Below are positions 8,240-12,090 of a stretch of 64,000 bases of DNA, one piece after another (position 1 is the stretch's first letter; every line of letters begins with the position of its first letter). Below the pieces are notes generated by a model that was not told the origin of the DNA, did not search any database, and saw nothing but the letters and a program-made list of their open reading frames with translations. Where the stretch lies: NCBI RefSeq assembly GCF_058153355.1, contig NZ_CM177019.1. The stretch is one strand, 5' to 3'. The position numbers were made by a program, and so were the translations under genes.

Positions 8240-8568
8240 CTATTTGTTAGTGAATAAAAGGTTGCCTGTAAAATTACAAAAACCTTACGCAGCGTCAAGC
8301 GGAATCGTGTCAATCATTGCGACAAATCAATCCTGTGCCTAAGCATTATGCGACTGACTCGCCTCACTCTTCCTTTGGGCTTGAGACCACATGGGGTCGG
8401 CGCCCCGAATTTTAAAGGGCAATTACGATAAAAATGTGATTTTCATCACGATTTAGGTGCAGCCATTTCGTCGAGATCAAGTTTAGGACAAAATTTTGCC
8501 AGTTGGTGTTAATGTTTTGTTGGAATCAGTCACGTAATGTGAGTACGATTAAAGTGAGATGTGAGCAA

Positions 8569-8982
8569 ATGGCTAATAAACCTTCGGCAGAAGAACTGAA
8601 AAAAAATTTGTCCGAGATGCAGTTCTACGTGACGCAGAATCATGGGACAGAGCCGCCATTTACGGGTCGTTTACTGCATAACAAGCGTGACGGCGTATAT
8701 CACTGTTTGATCTGCGATGCCCCGCTGTTTCATTCCCAAACCAAGTATGATTCCGGCTGTGGTTGGCCCAGTTTCTACGAACCGGTGAGTGAAGAATCCA
8801 TTCGTTATATCAAAGACTTGTCACATGGAATGCAGCGCATAGAAATTCGTTGCGGTAACTGTGATGCCCATCTGGGGCATGTCTTCCCCGACGGGCCGCA
8901 GCCAACGGGTGAACGTTATTGTGTTAACTCAGCCTCTTTACGCTTTACCGATGGCGAAAACGGCGAAGAAATCAACGGTTGA
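8569..8982 (+). CDS. msrB: Methionine sulfoxide reductase B
   Basis: 137 aa from [12 protein letters not shown]; two CxxC zinc motifs ([19 protein letters not shown]). Confidence 0.9.
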
Positions 8983-9023
8983 AAAAACGATTCAGCAACT
9001 TATTCCACAGGAGCGGAAAAATT

Positions 9024-9296
9024 ATGAATCTTGATGACATTATCAACAGCATGACGCCTGATGTATACCAGCGTTTGTCGACTGCCGTTGAGCTGGGGAA
9101 ATGGCCCGATGGCGTTGCGCTGACCGAGGAACAAAAAGAGAACTGCCTACAGCTGGTGATGCTGTGGCAAGCCCGCCATAATACCGAAGCACAGCATATG
9201 ACAATTGACACACATGGTCAGATGGTTATGAAGAGCAAACAACAGTTAAAAGAAGATTTTGGTATCTCAGCAAAGCCTATTGCCATGTTTAAATGA
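9024..9296 (+). CDS. yeaC: DUF1315 family protein YeaC
   Basis: 90 aa from MNLDDIINSMTPD; synteny downstream of msrB. Confidence 0.8.
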   Translation: MNLDDIINSMTPDVYQRLSTAVELGKWPDGVALTEEQKENCLQLVMLWQARHNTEAQHMTIDTHGQMVMKSKQQLKEDFGISAKPIAMFK

Positions 9297-9464
9297 TTGA
9301 ATTATTCAGCTTTTTGAGTCTGTTATTAAGTGCGAACAAAAATACTTGTTTGACGTCTTGATTGTTCGATTTAGCGGTTGATAGGTTAAATGCAACACTG
9401 ACGAGTATAACCTGGCCTACGATGTCAATGAGGAAATGTAGGCCAGAGATGTATTCAACTAATA

Positions 9465-10106
9465 TTACTCCTGCGTCTCTTCCCAGTCTGCCAGCGTATA
9501 TAGCGTTGCCCCAGCTGCTGACATCTCCATAAACGCGTGCGCACTGTCCTGTGGCTGGATATTCACGCCACGACAACCATCGGTAATCACATTAACCTTA
9601 TAACCTAACTGTAACGCGTCCAGCACGGTAAACTTCACGCAATAGTCAGTAGCCAGGCCCATAATGATCAATTCATCGATTTCATGATCGCGTAACCAGT
9701 CATCGAGCGTGGTTTTCTGCCGACGGCCGTTATCAAAAAAGGCACTGTAACTGTCAACTAAAGGATTTTCGCCTTTATGGAACACCGCTGCGATCGCTTT
9801 TTGGTTCAGTAACGGATGTAATTGTGCGCCTTCACTGTTCTGCACACAGTGATCTGGCCAGAAGGTTTGTGGCAAACCGTCGAGTTGGCCTGGCGTATAA
9901 GGCTCTACACCGTGCTGACTGGCAAAACTGCCGTGATTCGCCGGGTGCCAGTCTTGACTGGCGATAACCGCTTCACCGCGCGACTGGCACCAGTCAATCA
10001 GGCGGTTAGCGACATCCACCGTACTGTCACCTTCCGGCACGGCGAGCGCGCCACCAGCACAGAAATCATTTTGTAAATCGACCAGTAACAGGGCGCGAGG
10101 GGGCAT
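9465..10106 (-). CDS. pncA: Nicotinamidase/pyrazinamidase
   Basis: ORF 9465-10124 trimmed to MPPRALLLVDLQNDF (213 aa); isochorismatase-like fold motifs. Confidence 0.9.
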   Translation of the reverse strand: MPPRALLLVDLQNDFCAGGALAVPEGDSTVDVANRLIDWCQSRGEAVIASQDWHPANHGSFASQHGVEPYTPGQLDGLPQTFWPDHCVQNSEGAQLHPLLNQKAIAAVFHKGENPLVDSYSAFFDNGRRQKTTLDDWLRDHEIDELIIMGLATDYCVKFTVLDALQLGYKVNVITDGCRGVNIQPQDSAHAFMEMSAAGATLYTLADWEETQE

Positions 10107-10116
10107 TGCAGTCTCC

Positions 10117-11133
10117 TTAATCATCCGGCGTCAGTTCGCCGCGCAGGTTTTGGCTCATGGCCTTGCGAATGGTTTCAGTATCCAGTTCCTGGCTAAGCAG
10201 GTAATGCAGTTTGGTTAGCGTGGCTTCTACAGTCATATCTGCACCGCCAATAACGCCGGCATGGGCGAGGGCGTTACCGGTGGCATAACCCCCCATGTTC
10301 ACTTTACCGGACATACATTGTGTCAGGTTGACTACCACAATTCCGCGATCGCTGGCTTCTTGTAATTCTTGCAGGAAGGCTTTGTTTTGTGGCGCATTAC
10401 CCACGCCATATGAGCGCAGAATCAATGCTTTCACCGGTTGGCGCAGAAAATTGCGCACGACGTCAGCAGAAATCCCCGGATAAATCGTCACTACGCCAAT
10501 TGGTTGTGGGGTGATTGGATGAACGATCAATTCCCCTTCACCGTGCGGGGCTGGGGGGGTATTCAAACGACGAATGTGGATACCTGCTTCCAGTAACGGA
10601 GGAAGGTTTGGAGAGGCAAACGCATCAAAACCATCGGCATGGGCTTTGGTGGTACGGTTGCCACGATAAAGTCGATTATTAAAAAAGAGAGTTACTTCGT
10701 TGATAGGATAATTCGCCGCAACGTACAACGCATTCAGCAGATTAATTTGTCCGTCAGAGCGTAACTCAGCCAGCGGGATTTGTGACCCTGTCACAATGAC
10801 CGGTTTACCGAGATTCTCGAGCATGAACGACAGCGCAGAGGCGGTATACGCCATCGTGTCGGTGCCGTGCAGAATGACAAAACCATCATAGTCGTCATAA
10901 TGCGCTTTAATATCTTCAGCAATATGCTGCCAGTCTTCTGGCGTCATATCTGAAGAGTCCATCAGCGGCGTATATTCATGAATGGTGAAATCTGGCATCT
11001 CCGGGCGATGGAATTCCGGCATCAGCGCCAGTTGGCGTTGTAGATGACCTGACACCGGAATATAACCCTGCTCGGAACGCTGCATCCCGATGGTCCCGCC
11101 CGTGTAGGCGACGTAAATTGATTTCTTTTGCAT
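10117..11133 (-). CDS. ansA: Cytoplasmic L-asparaginase I
   Basis: 338 aa, MQKKSIYVAYTGGTIGM with TGGT active-site threonine motif. Confidence 0.9.
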   Translation of the reverse strand: MQKKSIYVAYTGGTIGMQRSEQGYIPVSGHLQRQLALMPEFHRPEMPDFTIHEYTPLMDSSDMTPEDWQHIAEDIKAHYDDYDGFVILHGTDTMAYTASALSFMLENLGKPVIVTGSQIPLAELRSDGQINLLNALYVAANYPINEVTLFFNNRLYRGNRTTKAHADGFDAFASPNLPPLLEAGIHIRRLNTPPAPHGEGELIVHPITPQPIGVVTIYPGISADVVRNFLRQPVKALILRSYGVGNAPQNKAFLQELQEASDRGIVVVNLTQCMSGKVNMGGYATGNALAHAGVIGGADMTVEATLTKLHYLLSQELDTETIRKAMSQNLRGELTPDD

Positions 11134-11264
11134 GATATTGATATGAATGATATCGAAAGAGCAAAAGTATATACGTGAGGGGCAGCGAGCGCACCTGGTT
11201 ACTCTGTGGATATGAGAAAAGTCCGGCAGAACGGAGGGATTAGTGTCCCGCCGGAGAAAAGTGG

Positions 11265-11987
11265 TTAATCCTGCAACGCATAGGTTACGGTGGTGACTAC
11301 GCGTACCGTTTTATTAATCGCCGTAGGATCATCTTCATCACTGCCACTGGCGAAGATCTGGAACACGCCTTGTGAGGCATCGCTAATTGACCCCACCTGG
11401 CTACCTGAGTCCGTTGCAAATTGTAATGCTGCGTTGCGTGCATCTTTGGTGGCGGCGGCAATCATCTCAGCGCGCAGTGCGCCAATACCATTAAAGCGAT
11501 AGGCGACTTTGCTCTCAGCGATAGCGCCCTCCGTAGCGACTTGCAGTTCGTTTAATTTCGCGACGACTTTTTCGACAGCAGCAACATTATGGGTTTTTAT
11601 CGTCACTGACCCGTCTGCGTTATAGCGTGGCATTGTGGGATCATCTTTCAGATAAAAGGAATCTGTTCGCTTGCTTTTCCATTGGCCCAGGGTTATCTCT
11701 TTCTCGTTAATCCCCTGAGCATTGAGTTCGGCAACAATTTTTTTCTGCGCGTCTTCCAGTTTCGGGAACAGTTCGCCGGGAATATTACCCTTAAAGTTAA
11801 TCGCAATTGTTAATTCTGCCGTATCTGCGCGAACTTCTTTTTCAGAAAGCCCACGCACATTTACATAACGGTTATTGGTTTTTAAATGTTTAACACCATC
11901 GCCAACAAAATAACCACAGGCGCTAATCCCCAGTCCGAGGACGATAGCGGCAATTAAAGAGGGGGCCTTATTCACTGATAACTCCAT
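11265..11987 (-). CDS. Putative lipoprotein, tentatively SIMPL/DUF541-like periplasmic protein; not recalled at this position in K-12
   Basis: ORF 11265-12077; most plausible start ATG at 11987 giving MELSVNKAPSLIAAIVLGLGISAC (signal peptide plus lipobox ISA-C); about 240 aa; codirectional between sppA and ansA. Confidence 0.6.
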   Translation of the reverse strand: MELSVNKAPSLIAAIVLGLGISACGYFVGDGVKHLKTNNRYVNVRGLSEKEVRADTAELTIAINFKGNIPGELFPKLEDAQKKIVAELNAQGINEKEITLGQWKSKRTDSFYLKDDPTMPRYNADGSVTIKTHNVAAVEKVVAKLNELQVATEGAIAESKVAYRFNGIGALRAEMIAAATKDARNAALQFATDSGSQVGSISDASQGVFQIFASGSDEDDPTAINKTVRVVTTVTYALQD

Positions 11988-12090
11988 ATCAGATGCTAAA
12001 TGAGCAAGGGAATGTAGTGGAGAGAGGGAGTGAAAGACAGTCCGATTCAGGAGTGTGGCCGACAGCATATCGGCCACATTTTTGCAGGAT

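Follow-up and report, generated by a model that had tools for sequence, protein, structure and literature searches.

An apparently ancestral SIMPL-domain gene between sppA and ansA, lost from K-12-type Escherichia coli through a shared deletion

The stretch of 64,000 nucleotides analysed here (contig NZ_CM177019.1 of RefSeq assembly GCF_058153355.1; hereafter the window) holds, between sppA and ansA, an open reading frame that K-12 lacks, and the locus thus raises the question of whether some Escherichia coli strains have gained a gene at this position or K-12 has lost one, and of what the encoded protein may do. An earlier note, made from the letters of the window alone, took the frame for a strain-variable addition. 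The setting is as that note described it, with sppA, the frame, ansA and, after ansA, pncA all on the same strand (Table 1), and its statement that fewer than 200 bp separate sppA from ansA in K-12 agrees with the 166-bp spacer found in K-12 (C600). The longest mechanical minus-strand frame ending at the stop codon at 11265 reaches back to GTG 12077, and the earlier note had an approximately 240-residue protein begin at Met 11987. The frame itself stands, but that start does not: in a comparison of upstream spacers the ATG at 11987 of E. coli is AAG in the other Escherichia species, and in E. coli, MOD1-EC7003, E1V33, E. whittamii, E. albertii and E. fergusonii alike GTG follows (A/T)GGAG after six nucleotides, which places the start at GTG 11975 and yields a gene of 711 nt encoding 236 residues, as in the RefSeq annotation. 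The N-terminal peptide of this protein (MNKAPSLIAAIVLGLGISAC...) matches the description of a signal-peptide stretch LGLGISA-C. A chance reading frame can be set aside because the whole Pfam SIMPL model is matched (PF04402, SIMPL/DUF541; E 4.9e-18, model positions 1-205 of 205, residues 42-236), the protein search returned 404 homologues, and dN/dS lies between 0.05 and 0.13; the concern that the frame might have no homologues and poor coding potential is removed by the same results. The frame is a real, expressed, functional and already annotated gene. It is labelled ECs_2473 in O157:H7 Sakai, Z2800 in EDL933 and WP_001030438/WP_001030441 in RefSeq, these orthologues lying at the identical position with 97.6-99.9% nucleotide identity to the window gene, and its product is called "SIMPL domain-containing protein" by RefSeq in carrier genomes and "putative lipoprotein" for ECs_2473 of Sakai. 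The gene is therefore a known one, whose orthologues have locus tags, expression data and homologues of solved structure.

Table 1. Positions in the window of the SIMPL-domain gene, its parts and its surroundings
Feature	Coordinates	Strand	Details
SIMPL-domain coding sequence, 236 residues, GTG start, TAA stop	11265..11975	minus	RefSeq coding sequence of identical extent
Ribosome-binding site GGAG	11982..11985	minus	6 nt 5' of the GTG start, read from the sequence
N-terminal hydrophobic helix, residues 5-27, lipobox-like LGISA-C20	11895..11963	minus	Cys codon 11916-11918
SIMPL two-lobed alpha/beta domain, residues 36-236	11268..11870	minus	AF2, Foldseek and PDB sequence matches
sppA (signal peptide peptidase), upstream neighbour	12091-13947	minus	
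ansA (asparaginase I), downstream neighbour	10117-11133	minus	
Hairpin 13 nt past the sppA stop	12055..12078	minus	Fold -19.7 kcal/mol, z -4.4
Hairpin (11222-11255) with U-rich tail, 3' of the SIMPL stop	11213..11255	minus	-18.3 kcal/mol, z -4.3
Segment missing in K-12-type genomes, net 791 bp	~11261..12053		Alignments to K-12/C600 and O55:H7
Tract of ~1.2 kb, nearly identical to the AVS0171 allele	~11000..12200		Mismatch counts per 200 bp

The assignment to SIMPL/DUF541, which the earlier note had offered tentatively, is borne out both by the Pfam profile and by the predicted fold. In the AF2 model (33 homologues; mean pLDDT 85.9) a helix of low pLDDT at residues 4-30 precedes a confident alpha/beta domain that begins at residue 36, pLDDT exceeding 85 across the SIMPL domain. 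Foldseek against the PDB ranked first the SIMPL-like protein of C. jejuni (7C50; E 5.9e-17, TM 0.76 on the target) and second Brucella BP26 (4HVZ; E 4.7e-12), the next hits standing at E of about 1e-4 and TM under 0.3 and all others being far weaker than the first two. Sequence matches obtained with phmmer among PDB entries likewise fell on the C. jejuni protein (10am_A, E 1.4e-27; 7c50, E 6e-26; approximately 31% identity). Entry 10AM holds nine chains of a full-length, 231-residue 'Periplasmic protein' nearly identical to 7c50, and its alignment begins at residue 8 or 9 of the window protein, so that the hydrophobic helix is included in the match. The C. jejuni protein (7C50/7C51; 10AM) is hence the best match in both sequence and structure and agrees in length, architecture, N-terminal hydrophobic helix and C-terminal KTxRVVxT strand, although it comes from a different phylum-level lineage and its helix has neither Cys nor lipobox. 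The window protein belongs to this subfamily: it has the hydrophobic helix with A14, G16, G21, G25 and G27 followed by R-x-V-x-V-[RK]-G-x-x-E, and each of G16, G21, G25, R36, V38, V40, G42 and E45 is shared with it by 90% or more of 112 full-length homologues. Brucella BP26/Omp28 (4HVZ) has the same SIMPL fold (profile E 2.9e-6) and is a periplasmic envelope protein, but it is only about 16% identical to the window protein and has no counterpart of the conserved glycine-rich membrane helix. Immunodominant and periplasmic, BP26 has a cleaved Sec signal and assembles into a channel-like 16-mer. Outside the Enterobacteriaceae the nearest relatives, 46-58% identical, are found in uncultured or aquatic bacteria, and further ones of about 35% identity in Bacteroidales, Thalassospira, Parasutterella and others. 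No match to the window protein came from PADLOC or PHROGs, and none in the region from Rfam, searched on both strands at E up to 1.

The earlier description of the gene as strain-variable holds, since it occurs in 943 of the 5,426 complete E. coli genomes, in each case as one chromosomal copy, and is absent from K-12. Carriers include ST131 and O157:H7/O55:H7/O145; alleles at least 99% identical to the window gene occur in 585 genomes (O25b:H4-ST131, MNCRE44), and alleles of 95-99% identity in 358 (O157:H7, O55:H7 and O145 at about 97.6%). With K-12 and approximately 83% of E. coli lacking the gene, the reservation that K-12 and most E. coli might carry it falls away. Genomes without the gene match the flanks only, and the sampled ones uniformly span 258-260 bp there (24 of 24), so that a single junction type is present among them. 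The same slot between sppA and ansA is filled in Escherichia sp. MOD1-EC7003 (95% amino-acid identity to the window protein), Escherichia sp. E1V33 (93%), E. whittamii (92%), E. albertii (86%) and E. fergusonii (69%; 6 of 6 places examined), and also in a metagenomic contig (67%) whose SppA is 97-98% identical to that of the Citrobacter freundii complex; the contig scan was not exhaustive, since it passed over E. albertii and E. fergusonii, two carriers of the gene. In Salmonella and other genera the gene is absent, a result that rests mainly on protein search.

Divergence at the locus was estimated by the Nei-Gojobori method, each lineage being compared with the window. The dS values for the SIMPL gene, sppA and ansA were, respectively, 0.29, 0.30 and 0.19 for MOD1-EC7003; 0.55, 0.42 and 0.36 for E1V33; 0.56, 0.56 and 0.43 for E. 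whittamii; 1.20, 0.71 and 0.68 for E. albertii; and 1.66, 1.65 and 3.2 for E. fergusonii, where, as in the Citrobacter comparison, dS is saturated. The low dN/dS of the SIMPL gene is accompanied by a dN 3-6 times above that of the flanking genes. Because the same slot is occupied across the genus and dS follows that of sppA and ansA, the state of K-12 is attributed to loss and not to addition elsewhere; on the evidence of these sequences the SIMPL gene is ancestral to Escherichia and vertically inherited, purifying selection has maintained it, and K-12-type E. coli have lost it.

The anatomy of the locus in K-12 is consistent with such a loss. The missing segment takes in what follows the hairpin in the left spacer, the entire coding sequence and about 5 nt past its stop. 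The hairpin 13 nt past the sppA stop is retained in K-12 (GTGGCCGA...TCGGCCAC) and is followed by ATTATTTTTT, after which K-12 is colinear with the spacer from about 5 nt past the SIMPL stop. K-12-type genomes share one old deletion of 791 bp, by which the sppA hairpin was joined to a T-run and the remaining downstream spacer. The spacer retained in K-12 is 78% identical to gene-carrying E. coli alleles and 85% identical to E. whittamii, against 98-99% identity between K-12 and O55:H7 in the flanking genes, and the deletion allele is therefore old or imported, recombination having homogenised all but the stretch linked to the indel. The first 53 bp of the K-12 spacer align with the E. coli allele no better than shuffled sequence does, and the approximately 75 bp proximal upstream of ansA hardly differ between alleles that carry the SIMPL gene and alleles that do not. 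A deletion between CCAC microhomologies was considered and dropped, as local alignments put the resumption of K-12 about 5 nt past the SIMPL stop, in diverged sequence. The earlier note's reading of the gene as an addition is therefore reversed: with the slot filled across Escherichia, dS resembling that of the flanks and a 791-bp deletion in K-12, the locus records loss, not gain. Recombination has also touched the gene-carrying allele, as the approximately 1.2-kb tract shared with AVS0171 is probably a recombination tract: the flanks of the tract differ by about 2.7% between the window and AVS0171, and dS between the two is 0.000 in the SIMPL gene, 0.107 in sppA and 0.106 in ansA. A strain labelled O25b:H4-ST131 has the window gene at 99.9% identity.

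A recent, horizontal and strain-specific insertion into a core sppA-ansA operon would account for the absence of the gene from 83% of E. coli genomes, for a GC content (47.7%; GC3 46.0%) slightly under that of sppA and ansA (GC3 52-55%), for the aquatic and uncultured sources of the nearest relatives beyond the Enterobacteriaceae, and for the empty slot of most Citrobacter, which have short, unrelated spacers of 55 or 127 bp. However, the slot is the same in all Escherichia species and lineages examined, the dS of the gene scales with that of its neighbours, K-12 retains the hairpin next to sppA together with a diverged version of the spacer downstream of the gene, and neither mobile-element features, terminal direct repeats nor any PHROG or PADLOC match that would indicate phage or defence cargo was found; on the time-scale of E. 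coli such an insertion is largely refuted and is regarded as very improbable. A 10-nt inverted repeat that brackets the gene was rejected as a candidate boundary, since 1.5 kb should contain about one such repeat by chance and the ends of this one lie off those of the deletion. An enterobacterial ancestor may, however, have received the gene by a much older transfer, the nearest relatives outside the Enterobacteriaceae being proteins of 46-58% identity from aquatic or uncultured bacteria. The gene might instead be a decaying, non-functional remnant, or pseudogene in waiting, in keeping with its loss from most E. coli, with the occurrence in some strains of damaged copies (IS1 insertions, a 712-bp copy, frameshifts and truncations) and with its raised dN. 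This too is judged extremely improbable, as dN/dS does not exceed 0.13 across long divergences, the frame of 236 codons is intact in six other Escherichia species or lineages (237 codons in the Citrobacter contig), a transcript is induced and a peptide has been detected. Vertical inheritance followed by deletion in K-12-type genomes is thus retained, and confidence in the identity, the ancestry and the deletion of the gene is high.

Evidence for expression comes from O157:H7. In strain Sakai, ECs2473, whose locus tag ECs_2473 was verified as that of the orthologue of the window gene, was up 11.65-fold in a microarray under lettuce cell-wall polysaccharide (PMC4940412). In EDL933, mass spectrometry assigned the phosphotyrosine peptide TNnRyVNVR (TNNRYVNVR) to Z2800 (PMC3681748 supplement); this peptide corresponds to residues 33-41 of the window protein, so the published pY68 of Z2800 would be Tyr37, the old EDL933 start apparently lying 31 codons upstream. 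Phosphorylated Tyr37 is the sole peptide evidence and is unusual for a residue predicted to be periplasmic; a false assignment or a different topology is possible. A scan of 10900-12400 for sigma-70 promoters and simple terminators found nothing, the hairpins of Table 1 having come from folding, and the hairpin at 11222-11255 was missed by the simple scan because its loop is 12 nt. Since no sigma-70-like promoter was detected, the model of transcription is an inferred one. Read-through from sppA may bring transcripts to the gene, as the hairpin there has no U-tract in gene-carrying alleles, whereas a U-run follows it in K-12 and E. fergusonii; these transcripts would end at the SIMPL gene's own hairpin, which is likely, judging by its fold and tail, to be the terminator of an sppA-SIMPL or a SIMPL transcript.

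How the protein is held in the envelope turns on its N-terminal segment, which the earlier note took for that of a lipoprotein. The hydrophobic stretch reaches a Kyte-Doolittle maximum of 2.12 at residues 7-25, and the E. coli protein fits the PROSITE-like lipobox rule exactly (K3, hydrophobic residues 7-17, I-S-A-C20, Gly at +2), MNKAPSLIAAIVLGLGISA-C20 agreeing with the pattern [LVI][ASTVI][GAS]C behind a basic n-region. Were the protein an outer-membrane lipoprotein, LspA would cut at LGISA|C20, Cys20 would be acylated, and Gly at +2 would direct it to the outer membrane via Lol; the motif [IL]-[ST]-A-C common to E. coli, E. albertii and the Citrobacter orthologue and the Sakai annotation speak for this. 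However, the motif is confined to five of the 112 full-length homologues (four Escherichia, from E. coli and E. albertii, and one Citrobacter), and the Cys is missing from the other 107, including P0009 and P0010, which at 65-67% identity have Gly or Ala in its place. E. fergusonii reads ITVC at this site, a non-canonical form with Val at -1, and the full-length C. jejuni chain (10am) aligns through the helix segment. The residues flanking the Cys are, moreover, nearly invariant (G16 in 109 of the 112 homologues, G21 in 111, G25 in 103; also A14 in 92 and G27 in 89), G16 among them even though cleavage would remove it, which is atypical of a cleaved signal peptide. The earlier claim thus survives as to the pattern in E. 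coli and fails as to the conservation of the Cys, leaving the call uncertain; lipidation is plausible but on the whole doubtful, and the label 'putative lipoprotein' depends on Cys20, a residue that the family otherwise lacks. The conserved glycine-rich segment looks like a retained transmembrane helix with small-residue packing, which its conservation pattern suggests as the ancestral state of the family. The same helix bears on whether the protein is a second YggE, that is, a soluble periplasmic protein of oxidative-stress defence with the role of YggE in K-12. The two share a Pfam family and are envelope proteins of the same organism, the NCBIfam YggE model (NF008299) gives a weak match (E 3.9e-4), and expression of yggE is reported to protect E. 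coli against tellurite-generated oxidative stress (Acuna 2009, cited in PMC12489995). However, the core gene for YggE lies at a different locus, the match scores 19.9 bits against a curated whole-protein cut-off of 249, and the window protein falls in a separate subfamily that conserves a membrane helix. The resemblance to YggE/SIMPL that had been noted is accordingly correct for SIMPL and not for YggE itself, to which the window protein is distantly paralogous, and a shared role in oxidative stress is considered quite unlikely.

Taken together, the data are probably best explained by an ancestral, functional SIMPL envelope gene whose product is anchored by a helix and which has been deleted in K-12-type genomes. 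The family and fold, the purifying selection, the expression in O157:H7, the genus-wide slot and the absence from K-12-type genomes by a shared deletion form the firm part of this explanation. The SIMPL domain would face the periplasm, by analogy with BP26, YggE and the name of the C. jejuni PDB entry, and would be held at the membrane by the uncleaved glycine-rich helix, the family-wide state, or possibly in E. coli by a lipidated Cys20. There it may act as an oligomerising or binding module without catalysis, dispensable under many conditions. It is accordingly no more than tentatively proposed that the protein is a non-enzymatic, membrane-tethered and probably oligomeric periplasmic module that aids envelope robustness and can be dispensed with in many niches, a reading suggested by the lack of a catalytic family signature, the helix-packing glycines and the repeated losses; that the gene is dispensable follows from the IS1 insertions, the 712-bp copy and the truncations in some strains. 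Clustering of neighbours across 80 related loci (75 with a detectable homologue) gave a best partner in 12 of the 75, all of it synteny within Bacteroidales, and with no conserved neighbour the gene would act alone or with partners encoded elsewhere. The literature search located no published function for the C. jejuni SIMPL-like protein or PDB 10AM, and no experimental work on where the E. coli protein lies, whether it is lipidated, how it oligomerises or what phenotype it confers. An unlikely but more far-reaching reading is left open by the near-invariant helix glycines and the nine-chain 10AM entry, namely that SIMPL proteins form a membrane-embedded ring or cage, a distinct envelope machine that ST131 and O157:H7 possess and K-12 lacks, the deletion polymorphism being kept by a trade-off. 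Such a trade-off would set, for example, exposure as a surface antigen or phage receptor against protection of the envelope, and in a variant of this reading Escherichia would have re-targeted the protein from the inner to the outer membrane via a lipobox that evolved inside the ancestral helix.

The practical value of these results is modest, and the understanding of any pathway or mechanism is unchanged. At the sppA-ansA locus K-12 represents the derived state, and ST131 and O157:H7, two much-studied pathogenic lineages, keep and express an ancestral envelope protein that is invisible to work based on K-12. The link to the solved C. jejuni structures could steer experiments on the E. coli protein.

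Within the window, a short segment from ~11000 to 12200, which spans the SIMPL gene, matches the corresponding sequence of AVS0171 almost perfectly, whereas its flanks are ~2.7% different, and on the basis of this near-identity against diverged flanks the segment is likely a recombination tract. A strain that bears the label ST131 has the SIMPL gene at 99.9% identity. The arms of a perfect inverted repeat (AATCCTGCAA and TTGCAGGATT) enclose the SIMPL gene together with its upstream spacer; they do not coincide with the ends of the deletion in K-12-type genomes that lack the gene. A 10-nt inverted repeat of this kind is expected by chance ~1 time per 1.5 kb.

Features located in the window and in loci of related genomes
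Feature	Location	Remarks
Inverted repeat, AATCCTGCAA / TTGCAGGATT	window 11267-11276 and 12082-12091	perfect, 10 nt
Tyr37 codon	window 11865-11867	
pncA, then directly yeaC and msrB	window 8503-10106	from gene order
C. freundii complex sppA-ansA spacer	L091:4358-4412	55 bp, own hairpin terminator
C. koseri sppA-ansA spacer	L095:4358-4484	127 bp, REP-like palindrome

Because pncA directly adjoins yeaC and msrB, the window lacks at this point the ydjE-ydjL cluster that K-12 and Sakai both carry. The SIMPL gene occurs together with this ydj-less pncA-yeaC junction in only 16 complete E. coli genomes; ydj is also missing there in many genomes without the SIMPL gene, and likewise in E. fergusonii and C. 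koseri. In genome matches H33-H41, E. coli isolates of mostly human and one canine source that carry the SIMPL gene and are missing ydj, an IS200/IS605 tnpA is annotated (e.g., in NZ_CM148325.1) at the equivalent of window ~9300-9460, inside the stretch matching window 8400-12150.

Damage to the SIMPL gene is sporadic (NZ_OX030701.1, H1; NZ_AP022032.1, H71; NZ_CP040316.1, H129; and related locus L103:1675-2280). Two E. coli strains carry IS1 within the gene, one E. fergusonii copy is truncated to 201 aa, and the copy of strain CV261, at 712 bp, exceeds the 711-bp gene by 1 bp and so is probably frameshifted.

As regards the protein, a published EDL933 phosphotyrosine peptide, TNnRyVNVR, equals residues 33-41, which unexpectedly places phosphotyrosine at Tyr37, a residue predicted to be periplasmic and lying shortly after the membrane helix. 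The full-length C. jejuni homologue is represented by nine chains in PDB 10am, its sole label being “Periplasmic protein”; the PDB copy searched with Foldseek did not include this entry, and a literature search found no paper on it.

The spacers of the empty Citrobacter alleles (L091 and L095) share no relationship with each other or with that of K-12; the sppA-ansA intergenic site is one of fast turnover.
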